UHGV virus genome: UHGV-0180141
Source of the DNA: a virus
DNA length: 20,019 nucleotides
Direction: 5' to 3' (one strand)
The notes beneath the pieces are model-generated. The model was given only the letters and a program-made list of their open reading frames with translations. It searched no databases and was not told the DNA's origin. Shown here in pieces: positions 5,662 to 16,461 of the stretch. The position numbers and the translations under genes are program-made. Within the stretch, counting starts at the first letter, position 1. Each line of letters opens with the position of its first letter.

Positions 5662-6183
5662 TTATTTCGATATCGTGATGTTGTTTTCCTCGTCAAACTT
5701 TCTGATTACTTCTTTCGCCTCTTCGAATGAAGAACATACTTTTTGCACTCTTGCATTAAGCAGTCGCTTATGAGCGATCCATCTTTTCCGCGTGTTGCAA
5801 AAGTAAACTCCAGATATTCCGCTGGAGTTATTTTTAGATAGTTTGATTCTATTCCTTTGGTTTGCTGATTTTTTCACAAGACGAAGATTTTCAATTCTGT
5901 TGTCGTGGCGAATCCCATTTATATGGTCAATTTCCATGCCTTCTGGAATATCTCCGTTAAACATTACCCATACGATGCGGTGTGCTAGCCACTTAATGCC
6001 GTTAATTCTTATGCGGATATATCCATTGCTTTCTAAAAGACCAGCAACTTTCCCAGCGTGTTTTGCATTCCAAACGTTGTGATAGTTGCGATTCTTTTTG
6101 TTGTTGAAAAATTCAGAGCTTCTGGCTTTCCAAACCAAAGAACCATCGCGGTATTCGAAGTATTCATTCAGTTCCATGCTCAT
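5662..6183 (-). CDS. HNH homing endonuclease (HNH_3 domain plus C-terminal AP2-like DNA-binding domain)
   Basis: Protein contains NGYIRIRINGIKWLAHRIVW...IDHINGIRHDNRIENLRLV (HNH_3-type motif with His/Asn catalytic residues) followed by SGISGVYFCNTRKRWIAHK (AP2-like). Antisense to the late operon, AT-rich relative to its flanks, and its stop abuts the scaffold stop. Confidence 0.85.
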   Translation of the reverse strand: MSMELNEYFEYRDGSLVWKARSSEFFNNKKNRNYHNVWNAKHAGKVAGLLESNGYIRIRINGIKWLAHRIVWVMFNGDIPEGMEIDHINGIRHDNRIENLRLVKKSANQRNRIKLSKNNSSGISGVYFCNTRKRWIAHKRLLNARVQKVCSSFEEAKEVIRKFDEENNITISK

Positions 6184-7590: not shown

Positions 7591-7827
7591 ATGACACACA
7601 TGATCTTTCGCCATGGCAACATGAAGAAGTGGAAAGGCGTTGGATACGACTTTGAAATCGTGAAAGCCGAAGAGCTTCAGGAATATCTGGATGCTGGCTG
7701 GTTTGCACATCCTGATGATCTTCTGAAGGATGTTGCAGAGCCAGAGCCAGAGCAAGAAGAAAAGCAGCGTAAAAAGCCTGATCGAAAACCTAAGGCGGCA
7801 TCAGATGAACCTGACAACGAAGGGTGA
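7591..7827 (+). CDS. hypothetical small acidic protein (78 aa) between coat and gp4-like gene
   Basis: ATG at 7591 preceded by GGAGACAAGC; the track ORF 7543..7827 begins inside the terminator, so the internal ATG was chosen. Overlaps the gp4 start by about 23 nt. Sf6-type genomes carry a small gene at this position (from memory, not verified). Confidence 0.45.
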
Positions 7828-8305
7828 TTTAGTCCTTGCGGCATTACGTAAGCTCGGTGTGGCATCAAATGCCACGTTAACTGATGTCGAACCGCAGTCT
7901 ATGGAAGACGGCGTCAACGACCTTGAAATGATGATGGCTGAATGGCTTGGCGGTGATGCGTCACCTGGGATCAACGTTGGCTACATTTTTGCTGATGCAG
8001 ATGTCGCTCCGGATCCGGGCGATGAGCACGGTTTATCAAATAACGCTATCAATGCCGTCATTTTCAACCTTGCCTGCCGCATTGCTCCGGATTATGCGCT
8101 GGAAGCGTCAGCAAAACTTATAACCACTGCCAGATACGGGAAAGAGCGACTCGTCAAACTGTCTGCAATGGACAGAGCAAAAGCCGCTAAATGTAAGTCC
8201 GGTTATCCAAACCGTATGCCTGTTGGCAGTGGAAACCAGTTGGCGAAGTGGAACGGTTGGAATTACTTCCACCGAAAGGAGCCTTGCGATAATGGGAGCG
8301 AATAA
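7805..8305 (+). CDS. head-completion / tail accessory protein (P22 gp4-like)
   Basis: 166 aa from ATG 7805; [41 protein letters not shown]... and ...[14 protein letters not shown]... resemble P22 gp4 as I recall it; the track ORF begins upstream at 7730 but homology begins at 7805. Confidence 0.85.
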
Positions 8306-9723
8306 TGCCGATTCAGCAACTTCCGCTTATGAAAGGTGTCGGCAAAGACTTTAGAAACGCTGACTATATCGACTATCTACCAGTGAATATGTTGGCTACA
8401 CCCAAAGAAATCCTCAACAGCAGCGGATATCTTCGCTCATTCCCGGGCATTGCCAAACGTTCTGATGTGAACGGTATATCGCGCGGCGTCGAGTACAACA
8501 TGGCGCAGAGTGCTGTATATCGCGTGTGTGGGGGCAAGCTGTATAAGGGCGAAAGTGAGGTCGGTGATGTTGCCGGAAGTGGTCGCGTATCAATGGCGCA
8601 TGGTCGAACATCACAGGCGGTAGGCGTTAACGGGCAACTGGTCGAGTATCGCTATGATGGCACGGTTAAAACCGTCTCAAACTGGCCTGCGGACAGCGGA
8701 TTCACGCAGTATGAGTTAGGCTCAGTCCGCGACATTACGCGCTTACGTGGGCGTTATGCGTGGTCAAAAGACGGCACTGATTCATGGTTCATCACTGACC
8801 TTGAAGACGAATCGCATCCTGACCGATACAGCGCACAATATCGCGCAGAGTCGCAGCCTGACGGCATCATCGGCATAGGTACATGGCGAGACTTCATAGT
8901 CTGCTTTGGTTCGTCGACGATTGAATATTTCTCCCTGACAGGTGCAACCACCGTTGGTGCCGCTTTGTATGTCGCACAGCCATCACTGATGGTGCAGAAA
9001 GGTATTGCCGGAACTTACTGCAAAACGCCGTTTGCTGATTCCTATGCGTTTATCAGCAATCCGGCAACAGGTGCGCCGTCTGTGTATGTCATCGGTTCCG
9101 GTCAGGTGTCACCAATCGCCAGCGCGAGCATTGAGAAAATCCTCCGCTCCTACACTGCTGATGAACTGGCTGATGGCGTGATGGAATCGTTGCGGTTTGA
9201 TGCGCATGATTTGCTGATTATCCATCTTCCGCGCCATGTTCTCGTGTACGACGCATCTTCAAGTGCCAATGGTCCGCAATGGTGCGTGTTGAAAACTGGC
9301 TTATATGATGATGTGTACCGCGCTATCGACTTCATTTACGAAGGCAATCAGATAACGTGCGGCGATAAGCTGGAGTCCGTGACCGGGAAATTGCAATTCG
9401 ATATCAGTAGCCAGTACGACAAGCAACAGGAACACCTGCTGTTTACTCCACTGTTCAAAGCGGATAACGCCAGAGTTTTCGACCTTGAGGTTGAATCGTC
9501 AACTGGCGTTGCGCAGTACGCCGACCGCCTGTTCCTCTCAGCAACCACTGACGGCATCAATTACGGGCGTGAGCAGATGATTGAGCAGAATGAACCGTTC
9601 GTTTACGACAAACGCGTTTTGTGGAAGCGAGTTGGGCGCATCAGGAAAAATGTCGGCTTCAAATTGCGCGTTATTACGAAGTCACCAGTCACTCTGTCTG
9701 GCTGCCAGATAAGGATTGAGTAA
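8305..9723 (+). CDS. tail accessory / head-completion protein (P22 gp10-like)
   Basis: 472 aa, the P22 gp10 length; start overlaps the gp4 stop (TAATG); conserved gene order. Confidence 0.88.
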
Positions 9724-10571
9724 TGGCGGATTCGAATCTCAATGTGCCGGTAATCATCCAAGCTACGCGGCTCGATACATCAGTTCTTCCACGCAATATC
9801 TTCTCGCAGTCGTATCTGCTTTACGTTATCGCACAGGGTACAGATGTTGGTAACGTGGCTAACAAGGCCAACGAGGCCGGACAGGGCGCTTATGATGCAC
9901 AGGTCAGGAACGATGAGCAGGATGTGATTCTTGTCGATCACGAAATTCGACTGGCATCAGCTGAAGCTAAGATTCAGGACCACGAAACAAGGATCACTAA
10001 CGCAGAAGCGGCGATAGTCGGCCTTGACTCACGATTAACGACAGCAGAAAACGATATTGATTACCTGACGGATGAAGTTGTCGCCATTCAAAACACGCTT
10101 TCAGACCATGAAACGCGCATTGATGCTCTGGAGTATGCCACTACTCGCAAAAAGTCAGAGGTTGTTTACTCTGGCGTATCTGTAACCATCCCGACAGCGC
10201 CGACCAACCTTGTTAGCCTGCTGAAAACGCTCACGCCGTCATCCGGGACGTTGGCACCATTCTTCGACACTGTTAACAACAAGATGGTTGTGTTCAACGA
10301 GAACAAAACCTTGTTCTTCAAGCTGTCGATCGTCGGGACGTGGCCCAGCGGAACCGCCAACAGGTCAATGCAGCTAACCTTTTCCGGCTCTGTTCCTGAC
10401 ACACTGGTAAGCAGTCGCAACTCGGCGACAACGACCGATAACATCCTGTTAGCTACGTTTTTCAGCGTGGATAAAGACGGCTTTCTTGCCGCAAATGGCA
10501 GTACGTTAACCATCCAGTCAAATGGTGCGGCGTTTACTGCCACAACCATCAAGATAATCGCGGAGCAGTAA
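9723..10571 (+). CDS. tail needle / cell-puncturing protein (P22 gp26-like N-terminus with an Sf6/HK620-type C-terminal knob)
   Basis: N-terminus [43 protein letters not shown]...[18 protein letters not shown] matches P22 gp26 as recalled; heptad-like HETRI.../AENDI... repeats; 282 aa rather than P22's 233, with a beta-rich C-terminal roughly 120 aa. Confidence 0.88.
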
Positions 10572-11028: not shown

Positions 11029-11724
11029 ATGTTATATGCATTTAAGCTGGGCAGAAAACTGCGCAGCGAGGAACCTTATTGTCCTGAAAAAGGCGGGAAA
11101 GGTGGCAGCTCTGATAAAAGCGCAAAGTATGCAGCAGAAGCTCAGAAGTATGCCGCAGACCTGCAAAATCAGCAGTGGCAGACGATCATGAAAAACCTTG
11201 CTCCGTTCACGCCGCTTGCGGAGCAGTATGTTAACCAGCTTCAGAATCTTTCCAGTTTAGAAGGTCAGGGGCAGGCACTTAATCAGTATTACAACTCTCA
11301 GCAGTATAAAGACCTTGCAGGTCAGGCGCGTTACCAGAGTCTTGCTGCTGCGGAGGCGACGGGTGGATTGGGTTCCACTGCAACCGGTAATCAGTTAGCA
11401 ACAATCGCACCAACGCTTGGTCAGCAGTGGCTGTCTGGTCAGATGAACAACTACCAGAATCTGGCAAATATTGGTCTTGGCGCACTGCAAGGTCAGGCAA
11501 ACGCCGGGCAGACATATGCCAACAACATGAGTCAGATTTCGCAGCAAAGTGCGGCTCTTGCAGCGGCAAATGCCAACAGACCATCAGCAATGCAATCTGC
11601 TATTGGCGGAGGTGCGTCTGGTGCTTTTGCTGGGGCTGGACTTGCGAAATTAATTGGTTCATCAACTCCGTGGGGTGCTGGTATCGGTGCTGGTATCGGT
11701 CTGCTTGGTTCACTGCTTTATTAA
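11029..11724 (+). CDS. ejection (injection) protein (P22 gp7-like)
   Basis: 231 aa (P22 gp7 about 229); Q/N/A-rich with a Gly-rich hydrophobic C-terminal tail (GGGASGAFAGAGLAKLIGSSTPWGAGIGAGIGLLGSLLY); synteny. Confidence 0.8.
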   Translation: MLYAFKLGRKLRSEEPYCPEKGGKGGSSDKSAKYAAEAQKYAADLQNQQWQTIMKNLAPFTPLAEQYVNQLQNLSSLEGQGQALNQYYNSQQYKDLAGQARYQSLAAAEATGGLGSTATGNQLATIAPTLGQQWLSGQMNNYQNLANIGLGALQGQANAGQTYANNMSQISQQSAALAAANANRPSAMQSAIGGGASGAFAGAGLAKLIGSSTPWGAGIGAGIGLLGSLLY

Positions 11725-11734
11725 GGGGTAATCA

Positions 11735-13051
11735 ATGGCTACGTGGCAACAGGGTATTAATTCTGGTGGTTTTCTGGCTGGCATCGGTACGCAAAATGAG
11801 AATGCGCCAAAGGCAAGCGACATTAACGCAACGCTTGGTCTGATCCGCGAAAACAATGAACTGGCTCGCTCAGGTGCAAATAACGTTGGGCTGACTGCTT
11901 TGCAAGGCCTTTCAGGCATTGCGGAGTCTCAGCGGCAGAAAGAATTTCAGCAGGCGTACGCTAATGCTTATGCGTCTGGTGATCGCAGTGCTTTGCGTCA
12001 GTTGGCTACTCAATATCCAGAACAGATTGAATCCGTTCGTAAAGGCATGGGATTCATTGATGAAGATCAGCGTAATTCTATCGGCACCTTAGCGGCTGGC
12101 GCACGCCTTGCGTCATCGTCTCCTGATGCGATGGCTAACTGGCTGCAATCTAACGCCGGTGAGTTAGCTCGTGTTGGCGTTAATCCTCATGACGTCGCTC
12201 AGATGTACCAACAGAACCCGCAGCAGTTCGGCGAATTTGTCGATCACCTGGGGATGGCCAGTCTCGGACCCGAAAAATACTTTGACCTACAGGATAAAAT
12301 GCAGGGTCGCCAGGTTACCATGCGCGGTCAGGATCTGGATTCGCAAACCGCCGCCCGGAATCAGGCAATCACAATGCGCGGACAAGATATCCAGGCGAAT
12401 TTAGGTCAACAGCGCATTAATCTGGACGCAGAAACAAACCGCATTAACTACGAAAATAAGCGCCTTGACCGGATGCTATCAGCAGAAACTAACGACCTGA
12501 AGCGCCAGGAAATACAGAGCCGCATAGCAGCCAACAACCAGCAGTTGCAGCAGAAGCAGCAAGCGCTAAATGATGGCTACAAAGACGGCATCAACACTCT
12601 CACAACCAGCATGTTCACTCTGAACGATATCGTTAGTTCTCCTTCACTTAAGAGCATTACAGGCTTACGTGGAGTAATCCCCAACGTTCCAGGCTCACAG
12701 GCTGCAGACACTCAGGCACGACTTGATACCTTTAAATCCCAAGCATACCTGACAGCGGTTCAGGCCATGCGAGGCATGGGCGCACTTTCTGATGCCGAGG
12801 GCAAAAAGCTCGACCAGGCTGTTGGTTCGCTGCAGAACTCGCAGAGCGAGGAGTCCTTTCGTCGCAACGCTGGCGTCATCCTGAACACACTCAACCAGAA
12901 GCGTAATGAGGCGGTTGGTAAGTACGTTCAGCAAAACGGTATCAAGCGAGTGGAAGCGCCTCAGGCTTCTATAGATTACCTGAAGCAGCACCCCGAGCTG
13001 TCAATCGACTTCATTAATCGCTACGGATATCTTCCATCTTTGGGGCAGTAA
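11735..13051 (+). CDS. ejection (injection) protein (P22 gp20-like)
   Basis: 438 aa; position between gp7-like and gp16-like genes; low-complexity Q/A/N-rich composition typical of ejection proteins. Confidence 0.78.
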   Translation: MATWQQGINSGGFLAGIGTQNENAPKASDINATLGLIRENNELARSGANNVGLTALQGLSGIAESQRQKEFQQAYANAYASGDRSALRQLATQYPEQIESVRKGMGFIDEDQRNSIGTLAAGARLASSSPDAMANWLQSNAGELARVGVNPHDVAQMYQQNPQQFGEFVDHLGMASLGPEKYFDLQDKMQGRQVTMRGQDLDSQTAARNQAITMRGQDIQANLGQQRINLDAETNRINYENKRLDRMLSAETNDLKRQEIQSRIAANNQQLQQKQQALNDGYKDGINTLTTSMFTLNDIVSSPSLKSITGLRGVIPNVPGSQAADTQARLDTFKSQAYLTAVQAMRGMGALSDAEGKKLDQAVGSLQNSQSEESFRRNAGVILNTLNQKRNEAVGKYVQQNGIKRVEAPQASIDYLKQHPELSIDFINRYGYLPSLGQ

Positions 13052-15787
13052 ATGGCTAATTACCGTGATTTGTTAGAGCAGGCTGGCGCACGTTACGGTG
13101 TGCCAGAAGGGTTGATGACTGCACTGGGTGCCAAGGAGTCTTCTTACAACCCTGCCGCAGTAAGCTCCGCCGGGGCTGTAGGATTGACTCAGGTCATGCC
13201 TGGGACATGGCGTGATATGGGTTATACCGATGAGCAAATGCAAAACCCCGAATATCAGGCTGACGCTGGCGCGCGCTATCTGGCAAAGATGTACCAGCAG
13301 TTTGGTAACTGGCGTGACGCTCTTCAGGCTTATCACGACGGCCCCGGCAACGTTATGAAGGCAAAGCGTGGTGAATATACGCCAGGACCTGAAGGCCGCG
13401 GTTACGTTGATGATCGCTTTGCTCAATGGGCGGGTGACCCGGTGACAGACTCAACAGTCGAACAGCGCGCCACCTCTGCAAAGGTACATCCTCAGCAAGA
13501 CCCTAACAACCCGTTTGCACAACTGGAAGCACAGTCATCCGAACAAGTATCGGCATCAGGCGTGCAGTCAGACCCAAATAATCCATTTGCTCAGATTGAG
13601 CAGCAGGCAGCCAGTCAGCAGCCACCTCAACCCGTAAGTTCTGTCGCACCGAAACCTGTTCAGCAACAAACAGTTAATCAGGCCAATAATGCACCAACAC
13701 GGGAAGAACCATCATTGATGCAACAAGCTGGTGATTGGCTCACAGGTGGTCAAAGTGCAGGGCAAATTGCAGAGCAGGCTGGTCGTGGTCTGGTAAACAT
13801 ACCATTTGACGTATTGCAGGGTGGCGCAAGTCTGATTAATGCAATCAGCCAGGGGCTTGGTGGCCCCAAGGTTTTGGACGATGTCTATCGTCCAGTAGAT
13901 CGACCGACAGACCCTTATGCGCAAGCTGGAGAGTCAATAGGCGGTTATCTTGTTCCTGGAGCAGGAGTAGCTGGAAACATGGTCATTGGTTCTCTCGCTG
14001 ACGCGGCGAATCAACGGGGTGATTTTGCCGAAAATGCCGCTATTAATGCCGGACTTAACATTGCTACGCATGGCCTGATAAATGGCGTTACCCGTGGTGT
14101 TCGTGGCGCATCAAATATAATTAGTGGCAATAAAACATCTGCACAGAGAGCGACCACTGCGCCAACAGAAACATCACCATTCTCCGGTGATGCCGCTGCA
14201 GCAACAAATCCTGCGGTTCATGCCGCAGAGGCAAGAGCAGCACAAGGTGTACCAATGACGCCTGCGGCGAGGGACCCAGAGGAGGTCGTTCGCACAGTAG
14301 CAGCACAAAAAAGGCCAAATCTCGCTTCATCGCTTGATGAACTAGATATCAATCCTCAGGCTGAAGTTCTGGAGTCTGCTGAAAGGCTTAATGTTGATTC
14401 ATTACTCCCTTCACACTTTTCCGGGAACGAGCAATACAAGGCAGTTGAGCAAGCAATCAAGTCCCGTGCGGGTTCTGCTCTACGGGTGCAGGAAAATGAA
14501 GCAATCAGGCAACTAGCACAGGGCGCGGGGGAGATAATTGATCGCGTTTCCGGTGCAAAAGATGCTCTTGGTATGAGCGACAAGTTTATTGATACGATCA
14601 ATGGAAGAATGTCTGCGCTGATGAAACGAAGCGACCAGCTTTATCGCAATGTTGAAAAGGCGATGCCTGCAGGTGCAAAAATTGATGCGCCATCAACAAG
14701 GTCAATGCTCAAACAGGTGGCAGAAGATCTTGGCGGGATGAAAAACCTTGACCCTATTGAAAAGAGAGTCTTTCGGGCAGTTAATCCAGGCAAGAACGGC
14801 GCATTAACTTATGCAAATCTCAATAAGCAACGACGACTTGTTGGTGATGCACTTCATAAGAAGTCTGGACCATATAAAGATGCTGATCGCGCTGCTTTAT
14901 CGAGGCTTTACGGTTCGCTCGCCGATGATCAAAAGGCGGCGCTGTCAGAGACAAATGCATTACGTGATTTTGAAGTTGCTCAGAGGCTTGTTCAGATGCG
15001 AAAAAGCATGGAAGAGCAAATGATTAATCTAACTGGCAGAACACTGAACGGTGATGTTTCTCGCAAAGCAACTACAGCACTACAGGCAATGTCGAAAGGC
15101 GATGCCAAAGGATTTCGTGAATTGATGCAAAACACGCCGTCCAGGAAGCTAAGAACCGAGCTACTGGGAACAGGTCTTCGGGATATGCTTTCGAACGGAA
15201 AACGTGGCGCTGATTTTAATCCTGCAGGGTTTGCTGACTGGTATCAAAACATGTTAGCAAACGGGCAGATGCGCAATCTTGCCCGACATTTACCAAAAGA
15301 GACTATGTCAGGTCTGAACGATGTATATAAGGTCGCAAAGGCTATCAAAGACGCAAAATCTTACGAGATAACTACAGGAAGACTAAACGAGTTCGTCAAA
15401 CGGTTTAATCGCGTCACTGCGGCAAATGAATTTGTTGCTAACCATGCCCAACGCATTGGCACTGCGGTTGGTTCAACTGTGTCAGGACCGTTCAGTGCAG
15501 TAGGTGCTGTTGCTGGGTCAGAAATTGGGGCAAAAGTCGCCAGCAAAATCAGGGCGATGGGCGGCGCTGAATCAATTGAATCTGCAGAAAAGCTAATTAG
15601 CTCACCAGAATTCCAGAAAGCAGCAAGGCTGGCAGTAAAACAAGCACCAGAAAGCATCGTTGATACAACTGTAAGACGCTCTTCTGCTTGGCGCTCGTTT
15701 TACAACTCACTTCCAGAATCAGATAAGAAAACCATATCAAGGCTAGGCATCATGTACTGGATGAACAGTGATGATAACCAGAAGTAA
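13052..15787 (+). CDS. ejection protein (P22 gp16-like) with N-terminal lytic transglycosylase (SLT) domain
   Basis: 911 aa. N-terminal ~110 aa carries SLT-like motifs ([10 protein letters not shown] with candidate catalytic Glu, [19 protein letters not shown]); then a Q/P-rich linker with a tandem DPNNPFAQ(L/I)E repeat, then a long helical/Ala-Gly-rich body. Last gene of the plus-strand string, start abutting the gp20-like stop. Confidence 0.85.
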
Positions 15788-15975: not shown

Positions 15976-16461
15976 TTATCTAATGTTGCTGCTACTGTTG
16001 CATGTGACGGTATTTCCAAATCCTGAATTGCAGTTTGTATATGTGTCAACGCGCGTTGGGTAAGGTTGAGTTATAACAGGCTGGCGCGCTTTTTGCTCGA
16101 TCGCTTGCATTGTGTTTACAGCCTGATAATTCAATAAAGCCTGCTGGAATGCTTGGCTTTGTGCTATTTGTTGGGCTTGTTCTTGGCTTTGTAATTGAAC
16201 ATAAAGATTCTGAAGCTCAAGTCTTGCCTGCGCGTCACTTATCTTGCCATCATCGACACCTTGCCCGAGCATCTTCGCAGCAAGGACATATAACTTAGGT
16301 GTTGGTGCTGATGCCATGCGTGAGTCGTTCTTCACACTGGCATCAAGGCAATTAGCCATATCGCTAAGCTTTGGATAGCGTTGCTCGCAACTTGCCTGAT
16401 AGTCGCTTACTTTTGCGCACCCAGCCAGCAGAAGCGGGATAATTAACAGTGATTTTTTCAT
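15976..16461 (-). CDS. predicted lipoprotein (161 aa) of unknown function; possible superinfection-exclusion moron
   Basis: Start chosen at internal ATG (rc of 16459-16461) giving MKKSLLIIPLLLAGC..., a signal peptide with lipobox LAGC; strong RBS TAAGGAGAG 8 nt upstream. Mature part is Q-rich/helical with a Cys-containing C-terminus. The track ORF extends 17 codons upstream to 16512 without an RBS. Confidence 0.72.
   Translation of the reverse strand: MKKSLLIIPLLLAGCAKVSDYQASCEQRYPKLSDMANCLDASVKNDSRMASAPTPKLYVLAAKMLGQGVDDGKISDAQARLELQNLYVQLQSQEQAQQIAQSQAFQQALLNYQAVNTMQAIEQKARQPVITQPYPTRVDTYTNCNSGFGNTVTCNSSSNIR

Follow-up and report, generated by a model that had tools for sequence, protein, structure and literature searches.

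The window analysed here, a stretch of 20,019 nucleotides from the virus genome UHGV-0180141, belongs to a P22-like phage of E. coli/Shigella, and the gp16 homologue of this phage begins with a domain that we predict to be a functional, muralytic family-1 lytic transglycosylase (SLT). The gene bears on how short-tailed P22-like phages bring a channel with a lumen of 34 angstrom through the peptidoglycan mesh. Taken as a whole, the observations on the fusion protein, herein termed SLT::gp16, are best explained by an SLT head that opens the peptidoglycan during DNA delivery, and we regard this as probable. The features are compiled in Table 1.

Table 1. Features of the SLT::gp16 gene and of neighbouring virion genes (positions in the window)
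Feature	Position	Strand	Details and basis
gp4 tail-accessory homologue	7730..8305	+	PF11650 E=1.6e-58
Gene 7 homologue, outer-membrane / extracellular channel protein	11029..11724	+	PF25688 E=9.5e-132
Gene 20 homologue, periplasmic channel protein	11735..13051	+	PF16928 E=3e-69
SLT::gp16 ejection protein gene	13052..15787	+	911 aa, 97.5 kDa; stop codon in range; ORF list
Predicted family-1 lytic transglycosylase catalytic domain (SLT / goose-lysozyme-like), aa 1-128	13052..13435	+	Pfam, AF2, Foldseek, dN/dS
Codon GAG, Glu29, predicted catalytic acid (E-S motif)	13136..13138	+	alignment to Slt70, T7 gp16
Motif II GLTQVMP, aa 44-50	13181..13201	+	G44, Q47, P50 invariant
Motif III AYHDGPGNV, aa 93-101	13328..13354	+	Y94, G97 invariant
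Acidic Q/P/A/S-rich linker, aa 129-217, predicted disordered	13436..13702	+	composition, pLDDT
Linker repeat copy 1, DPNNPFAQ[LI]E motif, aa 150-159	13499..13528	+	
Linker repeat copy 2, DPNNPFAQ[LI]E motif, aa 174-183	13571..13600	+	
Conserved gp16 N-region, aa 218-353, Gly/Ala-rich	13703..14110	+	block common to P22 and HK620 gp16
Sf101-type gp16 body, aa 354-911	14111..15784	+	AF2; phrog_770, phrog_6704 matches

The gene is a single ORF with an ATG start. It forms part of the late virion operon, with gene 20 on one side and the immunity region on the other, and the TAA of the gene 20 homologue abuts this ATG (zero gap in the junction sequence). The order gp7-gp20-SLT::gp16 is kept in the window phage and in five other genera, and the order gp7-gp20-gp16 is also found in P22. 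A gp16-like identity had been stated in the preliminary description, and it agrees with the position after the gp7 and gp20 homologues, with the match to phrog_770 'DNA transfer protein' (E=4.6e-161 over aa 108-864), and with 81% identity to aa 53-189 of P22 gp16 in the N-region. Close relatives of the protein carry the PF26808 (Phage_P22_gp16) annotation. Judged by gene position and homology, the product corresponds to the largest ejection protein of the P22-type set of three, and it is presumably packaged into the virion and ejected. The needle of the window phage has an Sf6-type knob (PF16532). A minus-strand lipoprotein encoded downstream (15976-16461), considered as a candidate for inhibition or exclusion, had no match in Pfam, PADLOC or the PDB. 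An antisense ORF of 117 aa with a TTG start (13073-13426) lies wholly within the SLT coding region and is likely spurious.

The identity of the head is clear from profile, motifs and predicted fold. The Pfam profile SLT (PF01464) matches aa 7-110 with E=3.3e-25 and 88.4 bits (gathering cut-off 21.3; profile positions 2-110 of 117 aligned), and therefore the SLT-type motifs that had been quoted from the N-terminus are not chance matches. All three are present in the translation (AKESSYNP at aa 27-34, followed by motifs II and III). Glu29 matches Glu478 of Slt70 in an ungapped alignment as well as Glu37 of T7 gp16, and the expectation of a conserved catalytic Glu thus holds. Together with Ser30, it is unchanged across an alignment of 39 diverse SLT sequences, in which G44, Q47, P50, Y76, Y94 and G97 are the other invariant positions. 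The pattern GL[TGAV]QV[ML]P was found in 88 of the 89 SLT-bearing matches and AY..G.G in 88/89 SLT heads, and the motifs are retained even in heads that are merely 44-56% identical. AF2 predicts an all-helical, goose-lysozyme-like fold with a pLDDT of ~95 over aa 1-128, and with this predicted structure as query, Foldseek returned Slt, Slt70, LtgA, MltC, MltE, MltF and MltD, all with a probability of 1.00, and in addition T7 gp16 (7eyb_I, 9jyy_I, 7k5c_B). The lytic transglycosylase equivalogs of the host in NCBIfam were matched solely far below their cut-offs, and the head is therefore not an orthologue of a host enzyme. Neither a signal peptide nor a lipobox is present in SLT::gp16, and without a signal peptide, the periplasm can be reached by ejection alone.

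It could be argued that the domain binds peptidoglycan without cutting it and serves as an anchor at the wall for gp16 or for the gp20 channel. SLT folds do have a glycan-binding groove, and the long tether behind the domain would suit anchoring, but binding alone would not need the invariant Glu-Ser pair and the invariant motifs II and III, and the closest precedent, T7 gp16, has been reported to be enzymatically active (PMC5380687 Table 2). An anchor of this kind is very unlikely, and a cutting enzyme is what we predict from the conserved catalytic residues and the modelled fold.

The head is joined to the gp16 part by a linker that is rich in Q (18%), A (13%), P (13%) and S (11%) and has a pI of 4.5 (computed over aa 126-217). 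Its pLDDT is mostly <65 in the AF2 model, with a short helix at aa 178-186, and both copies of the DPNNPFAQ[LI]E motif are retained in 61 of 65 window-type heads, diverged heads included. The interval 13052-13700 (aa 1-216), to which the transglycosylase extension had initially been assigned, comprises the SLT domain (aa 1-128) and almost the whole linker (aa 129-217). In the following N-region, aa 221-353 of the window protein align with the above-mentioned P22 segment, and the block of aa 250-300 is about 100% identical to P22/HK620. In the body, an Ala/Thr-rich low-confidence stretch precedes an all-helical domain (aa 431-785, pLDDT 80-95); a hydrophobic Gly/Ala segment (aa 802-823) leads on to the C-terminus, which is helical as well. 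Weakly hydrophobic Gly/Ala-rich stretches are found at aa 247-265, 295-319 and 802-823, and like P22 gp16, SLT::gp16 has no strongly predicted transmembrane helix. The AF2 monomer has no confident structure for aa 132-430, and head and body are not positioned confidently towards each other. From aa ~354 on, BLASTP detected no similarity of the Sf101-type body to the P22 gp16 body, and the pairwise likeness to P22 is thus restricted to the N-region, the body being related at profile level only. There are 999 clusters (50% identity) related to this body, and in a PDB sequence search the 780 residues that follow the SLT domain had no match.

How much of the protein length is due to the head? The comparison of 911 aa with about 609 aa for P22 gp16 is correct (NC_002371 11484..13313, 609 aa), and an N-terminal SLT domain is indeed present, but this extension is not the whole 302-aa excess, since aa 53-189 of P22 gp16 align with aa 221-353 of the window protein and a sibling that has this body but no SLT (P0004) still counts 759 aa. 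This sibling has a P22-type head of ~34 aa in place of the 203 aa found here, which results in a net gain of ~170 aa. By this sequence comparison, the SLT head explains ~170 (about half) of the extra residues, and the other ~130 aa belong to a C-terminal body that is longer than that of P22 and different from it.

SLT heads are not confined to the window. Uninterrupted SLT::gp16 ORFs exist in several phages that were isolated independently (Sf101, APC_JM3.2, Dewey, Huey, IME10 and phiKp_30) and in 67 complete E. coli genomes, out of about 416 E. coli genomes in which a gp16 gene is detectable. Further copies are found in Shigella, Klebsiella, Serratia, Cronobacter, Pluralibacter and Shimwellia, and prophages of Klebsiella, Serratia, Cronobacter and Shimwellia contain diverged heads at the same position and in the same architecture. 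An artefactual origin of the long ORF, i.e. two genes fused by a sequencing or assembly error, had nothing more than the unusual length in its favour; it is already refuted by the copies in independent isolates and complete genomes, and the diverged versions in other genera share the architecture. We consider it practically excluded. Some of the E. coli copies are located in degraded prophage remnants.

The gene is a mosaic, as the preliminary description had noted for this region relative to P22: head, gp16 N-region and body each have different nearest relatives. The head is joined to at least three types of gp16 bodies, and its protein sequence is 100% identical on three different bodies, which points to a recent horizontal exchange. 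In siblings (P0002-P0015, 93-97% identical), the same body has a short head of P22 type or HK620 type instead, and the SLT head is therefore dispensable for the basic function and probably not an absolute requirement. A donor search with aa 1-125 alone revealed no recent donor; outside gp16 fusions, the nearest sequences were small stand-alone SLT proteins of 40-54% identity.

Such mobility may suggest that the head is a near-neutral passenger, a module that is spread by the intense local recombination and tolerated at the variable gp16 N-terminus with no measurable contribution. The identical head on three bodies, the exchange against short heads on one and the same body, and the limited share of E. 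coli genomes that carry it would all be compatible with this. A neutral module would decay, however, and the catalytic residues are invariant in the 44-56% identical heads, which occur at the same gene position in at least six genera. The SLT domain is under strong purifying selection, also between heads that are saturated at synonymous sites, and is thus kept by selection: pN is 0.024 versus a pS of 0.62 in comparison with the Cronobacter copy, dN/dS is ~0.05 between Klebsiella and Serratia, the overall range is ~0.02-0.05, and the protein sequence of the linker evolves 2-6x faster than the domain. This estimate rests on diverged copies in place of near-identical ones, as the latter (Sf101, Dewey, IME10, phiKp_30 and E. 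coli 730V1) differ at 3-4 sites, all synonymous, which are too few to weigh. A passenger role is therefore unlikely.

Mechanistically, we propose that the short variable N-terminal head of gp16 has been exchanged for a family-1 lytic transglycosylase on a disordered tether of ~90 residues. P22 virions contain about 6-12 copies of gp16. SLT::gp16 would be packaged in the virion like gp16 and would leave it through the portal and the tail channel ahead of the DNA. The SLT head would refold on reaching the periplasm and, with Glu29 as general acid, cut MurNAc-GlcNAc bonds locally. The mesh opened in this way would allow the wide gp20 barrel to pass through the wall, and at the cytoplasmic membrane the gp16 N-region would dock to the plinth of gp20. 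This scheme is consistent with an in-situ study of P22, according to which the dodecameric gp20 barrel crosses the peptidoglycan, aa 1-205 of gp16 are predicted to touch the gp20 plinth at its periplasmic face, and gp16 diffuses as periplasmic monomer that probably enters before gp20; this preprint names no wall-cutting enzyme (10.64898/2026.09.03.749273). In case of T7 gp16, the transglycosylase is required only with highly cross-linked peptidoglycan (PMC8954989), and by analogy the SLT head is probably accessory and may permit a faster or safer DNA entry when the wall is dense, as in stationary phase or at low temperature. The literature searched contained no biochemistry or virion proteomics on SLT::gp16 or close relatives.

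P22 gp16 not only diffuses but also complements in trans outside the cytoplasm (10.64898/2026.09.03.749273), and an attached enzyme could thus act away from its own virion. This raises the question whether the enzyme serves another stage or target, be it lysis at the end of infection, an action in trans for co-infecting phages, or the lysogen. The lack of a signal peptide and the position of the gene in the late virion operon argue against this, a separate holin, lysin and Rz cassette has been described for related phages (PMC10345575), and a late cytoplasmic protein that is packaged in proheads cannot get to the wall before lysis. We judge a role of this kind to be quite unlikely, and an opening of the wall during DNA entry remains the preferred explanation.

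A more far-reaching, as yet tentative extension of this explanation, which we consider possible, is that the N-terminus of P22-type gp16 is a general, hot-swappable slot for enzyme cargo bound for the periplasm. The SLT would then be set free as a diffusing monomer ahead of gp20 channel assembly and would make the opening for the 12-mer barrel. If this applies, the SLT head would be a conditional determinant of host range or physiological range that is able to act in trans for co-infecting phages, and the natural siblings with and without the head would be a direct handle on peptidoglycan crossing by P22-like phages. More generally, as the same gp16 body occurs with and without the head, the share of a virion-borne transglycosylase in DNA entry becomes measurable in near-isogenic backgrounds.

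As a sequence, SLT::gp16 is not new, and phage T7 offers a precedent for the principle. ORF13 of Shigella phage Sf101 (AII27837, KJ832078), with the GenBank product name 'transglycosylase', is 99.3% identical at the nucleotide and 98.9% at the amino acid level over all 911 residues and has the same neighbours. Sf101 differs from the window in a shorter ORF at the needle position and in the region downstream of gene 16. The same gene is also present in Escherichia phage APC_JM3.2, which is the best overall match to the window (70% of the window at 96%). The Sf101 paper gives ORF13 as a divergent injection protein only and does not mention the SLT domain (PMC4159516), and the gene goes by inconsistent or misleading names in databases ('lytic tail fiber protein', 'hypothetical protein'; one paper places it under DNA modification). 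We found no description of the fusion in the literature searched, and a mention in comparative work on P22-like virion genes is conceivable. A 2022 review states that a gp16 transglycosylase is absent from P22-like phages (PMC8954989), whereas according to the sequences such a domain is present in a considerable minority of the P22-like phages and prophages.

In comparison with known systems, SLT::gp16 combines features of several protein families. It shares the position after genes 7 and 20 and the membership in PHROG 770 with P22 gp16 and HK620 gp16 (722 aa), which instead have short non-enzymatic heads of about 50 (P22) or 55 (HK620) residues before the conserved block. With the catalytic domain of E. 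coli Slt70 and with MltC/MltE/MltF (GH23), the head has the fold and the three motifs in common, but unlike Slt70 it is a bare catalytic domain that lacks the superhelical U and L domains. Peptidoglycan-degrading activity in a P22-type virion is known from gp4, the only virion-associated lysin reported for P22 (PMC5380687 Table 2). In contrast to the SLT head, gp4 is sited in the neck and not ejected, and the two proteins are unrelated; as the window also encodes a gp4 homologue, the SLT head comes on top of gp4. Polyvalent proteins of phages and conjugative elements, which combine lysozyme-like, zeta-toxin-like or ADP-ribosyltransferase domains with structural modules (PMC5512222, Iyer et al. 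2017), are likewise injected or virion proteins, and the gp16-body relatives P0372 and P0276 carry such domains. SLT::gp16 has one enzymatic domain only, and neither P22 nor gp16 occurs in that survey.

The closest parallel is T7 gp16 (internal virion protein D), which the preliminary description had already named. It also carries a family-1 lytic transglycosylase domain at its extreme N-terminus, is encoded by the largest of three consecutive ejection-protein genes, and has a presumed role in opening the peptidoglycan during DNA entry. The two catalytic Glu residues correspond to each other (E37 versus E29; 28% identity, E=2e-10), and the folds match. As an analogy of design the parallel is apt, but it does not extend to the bodies, which have no detectable homology: BLASTP against T7 gp16 showed no similarity past the SLT domain, tblastn matches to T7-like phages were restricted to aa 2-119, and phrog_342 matches aa 3-238 only. 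T7 gp16 is a protein of 1318 aa in the internal core stack, in which a gp15-binding 'molecular tape' comes after the transglycosylase domain (PMC8954989), whereas in SLT::gp16 the disordered Q/P-rich linker with its DPNNPFAQ[LI]E pair follows. On sequence grounds, SLT::gp16 thus resembles T7 gp16 at its head and stands outside the T7 gp16 family.

The 911-aa protein is encoded by a single ORF in the ORF listing of the window, and at the junction its ATG abuts the TAA of the upstream gene. The window comes from a P22-like phage or prophage and covers its late (virion) genes, in the order small terminase, large terminase, portal, scaffold, coat, gp4, gp10, gp26 needle, gp14, gp7, gp20 and the 911-aa gene. 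The preliminary description had proposed a gp16-like ejection protein with an N-terminal lytic transglycosylase (SLT) domain, and both observation and interpretation are sound, considering the Pfam match, the alignment of the catalytic Glu, the position after gp7 and gp20, and the match of the body to phrog_770 'DNA transfer protein' (E=5e-161, PHROG profile search). The body family comprises about 1000 clusters at 50% identity. Many independent copies rule out that the long ORF arose as an assembly artefact. Sf101 ORF13 of Shigella phage Sf101 is 99.3% identical at the DNA and 98.9% at the protein level, and the copy of Escherichia phage APC_JM3.2, the best match to the whole window (70% covered at 96%), is 98.8% identical at the DNA level.

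Features of the 911-aa gene and its surroundings in the window
Feature	Window position (strand)	Residues	Remarks
HNH_3 endonuclease	5662-6183 (-)	173 aa	PF13392, E=4e-22; phrog_99
Tail needle, gp26 homologue	9723-10571	282 aa	Sf6-type knob domain, PF16532, E=6e-109
gp7 homologue	upstream of gp20		PF25688, E=1e-131
gp20 homologue	directly upstream of 911-aa gene		PF16928, E=3e-69
911-aa gene	13052-15787 (+)	1-911	ATG start
SLT catalytic domain		1-128	PF01464 on aa 7-110
Linker		129-217	acidic, Q/P/A/S-rich, predicted disordered, pLDDT mostly <65
Decapeptide, copy 1	13499-13528	150-159	DPNNPFAQ[LI]E
Decapeptide, copy 2	13571-13600	174-183	DPNNPFAQ[LI]E
gp16 N-region		218-353	Gly/Ala-rich; 81% identity to P22 gp16 aa 53-189; nearly identical to HK620 gp16
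Body		354-911	helical core aa 431-785 confidently predicted
Antisense ORF	13073-13426 (-)	117 aa	TTG start; wholly within SLT coding region
Lipoprotein	15976-16461 (-)	161 aa	directly after gene 16; lipobox LLLAGC; phrog_6067 (no assigned function)
Arc/Ant immunity region	downstream of 911-aa gene

The comparison of 911 aa with the 609 aa of P22 gp16 was correct as to both lengths, but the excess is not simply an N-terminal extension. The head swap places 203 aa where SLT-less relatives have a short non-enzymatic head (~34 aa in the sibling P0004), a net gain of ~170 aa, and the other ~130 aa are due to a longer body, for which BLASTP gave no alignment with the P22 gp16 body. A sibling that shares the longer body but lacks SLT has 759 aa.

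The SLT domain matches PF01464 with E=3.3e-25 and 88 bits versus a cut-off of 21, and the resemblance of the three motifs recognized earlier, AKESSYNP (aa 27-34), GLTQVMP (aa 44-50) and AYHDGPGNV (aa 93-101), all of which are present, is therefore not due to chance. Five lines of evidence say that the enzyme is intact. Glu29 aligns ungapped with Glu478 of E. coli Slt70 and with Glu37 of T7 gp16; alignment with 38 diverse SLT proteins shows no variation at E29, S30, G44, Q47, P50, Y76, Y94 or G97; and among 89 SLT-bearing gp16 relatives, with head identities down to 44%, motif II and motif III are each kept in 88, and the E-S motif is preserved too, its few seeming exceptions being regex matches that fall in N-terminal extensions. 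The AF2 model of the head (pLDDT ~95) finds Slt, Slt70, LtgA, MltC, MltE, MltF, MltD and T7 gp16 (7eyb_I, 9jyy_I, 7k5c_B) in Foldseek. Finally, the head is under purifying selection, with pN=0.024, pS=0.62 and dN/dS ~0.02 against the Cronobacter copy and dN/dS ~0.05 between Klebsiella and Serratia heads; in other pairs synonymous sites are saturated and pN is 0.13-0.15. This selection contradicts the idea that the head is a neutral passenger module, and the invariant catalytic residues contradict a role as non-catalytic anchor. The 117-aa antisense ORF is likely spurious, because the coding evidence for the plus strand is strong.

The linker changes 2-6x faster than the head at the protein level. 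Within these otherwise fast-evolving surroundings, 61 of 65 heads of the window type retain both copies of the decapeptide, among them those of K. aerogenes and Shimwellia with only ~59% linker identity. The decapeptide, possibly a short docking motif, was found neither in stand-alone SLT proteins nor in any other virion protein of the window.

Head and linker (aa 1-207) occur with 100% protein identity on at least three different bodies, namely those of Sf101/window (911 aa), Dewey/Huey (875 aa) and IME10/phiKp_30 (797 aa). Conversely, the Sf101-type body is found at 93-97% identity with P22-type (P0002, P0004) or HK620-type short heads (P0007, P0012). In prophages of Klebsiella variicola, K. 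aerogenes, Serratia marcescens, Shimwellia and Cronobacter, the gene immediately following gp7 and gp20 likewise begins with an SLT head, in diverged form, and proteins of 800-1000 aa built to the same overall plan are numerous among the uncultured-phage entries of BFVD. The head is present in 67 of 5426 complete E. coli genomes, an approximate prevalence that includes truncated copies in decayed prophages; a match covering at least the first 45 nt of the conserved region of gp16 occurs in 416 of the genomes. One such remnant, beside dsdX in E. coli O19:H7 730V1 (locus L008, 5001-6710), retains only gene 20, a truncated 569-aa SLT-gp16, arc, tailspike and acyltransferase. Records of this 569-aa protein exist for 66 contigs, and this remnant therefore makes up part of the prevalence of the head in E. 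coli. Of the 43 body relatives whose N-terminal extensions are longest, 18 carry SLT and 24 have no recognizable N-terminal domain. The latter include the metagenomic P0276 (1255 aa), which combines a Zeta-toxin domain (aa 570-663) with a gp16-type body, and metagenomic P0372 (1212 aa) combines SLT (aa 19-115), an ADP-ribosyltransferase toxin domain (aa 714-829) and such a body.

Further differences from P22 surround the gene. The needle knob is of Sf6 type, unlike that of P22, which adds to the mosaicism, and the ORF at the needle position of Sf101 is shorter. The HNH_3 gene, antisense between scaffold and coat genes within a 590-bp gap not present in P22, resembles a free-standing homing endonuclease gene that has entered the late operon. 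The slot after gene 16 holds sieA in P22, but in the window the lipoprotein, which has no match in Pfam, PADLOC or PDB; in the Klebsiella variicola prophage (locus L009, 8707-9075) the slot is taken by an immunity protein of the Rap1a family (PF18602, E=6e-18). Genes for periplasmic exclusion or immunity may accumulate at this position.

The head is unlikely to serve lysis or the lysogen, as its gene belongs to the late virion operon, a signal peptide is lacking, and relatives are described with separate lysis cassettes (PMC10345575). Without a signal peptide, ejection would be the sole route of the head to the periplasm. According to a 2026 in-situ cryo-EM preprint on P22 (10.64898/2026.09.03.749273), gp20 forms a dodecameric barrel with a 34-angstrom lumen that spans the peptidoglycan, and gp16 is located in the cytoplasmic membrane; gp16 behaves as a monomer able to diffuse, its entry probably precedes that of gp20, and a contact of its N-terminal region (aa 1-205) with the gp20 plinth is predicted on the periplasmic side. 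From this work and the domain anatomy we infer that the SLT domain, joined to the gp16 N-region by a flexible tether of ~90 residues, would be suitably timed and positioned in the periplasm to open the wall locally. As head-less siblings exist, the role may well be conditional and accessory, like that of the T7 gp16 transglycosylase domain, which is required only with highly cross-linked peptidoglycan (PMC8954989).

The database names are inconsistent. Across KJ832078, NC_027398, MG197996, PQ850600 and NC_019501 they comprise 'transglycosylase' (as in Sf101), 'lytic tail fiber protein' (also the name of phrog_21143), 'hypothetical protein' (as in APC_JM3.2) and 'DNA transfer protein'; the 797-aa ORF of IME10 carries no annotation, and P22 gp16 is labelled 'head morphogenesis' in RefSeq. 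One paper places a homologue under DNA replication and modification, and the Sf101 paper (PMC4159516) does not mention the SLT domain.

Internal ejection proteins that carry a peptidoglycan hydrolase are a textbook design, realized in T7/T3 gp16, SP6 gp36 and phiKMV gp36 (PMC5380687); movable muralytic domains among podovirus internal proteins were noted earlier (PMC4819975), and injected 'polyvalent proteins' with several enzymes are well documented (PMC5512222). The principle is known and the gene is already in databases and annotated, but the fusion itself is undescribed in the literature found, in a search that did not include the key comparative paper (Casjens and Thuman-Commike 2011). 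For P22-like phages, gp4 is the only virion lysin reported (PMC5380687), and the SLT::gp16 fusion corrects the generalization, published in a 2022 review, that the gp16 transglycosylase is absent from these phages (PMC8954989). Natural head-plus/head-minus pairs are available for experiments. The head would work like that of T7 gp16, but the 911-aa protein lies outside the T7 gp16 family and belongs to the SLT family and the P22 gp16 family.
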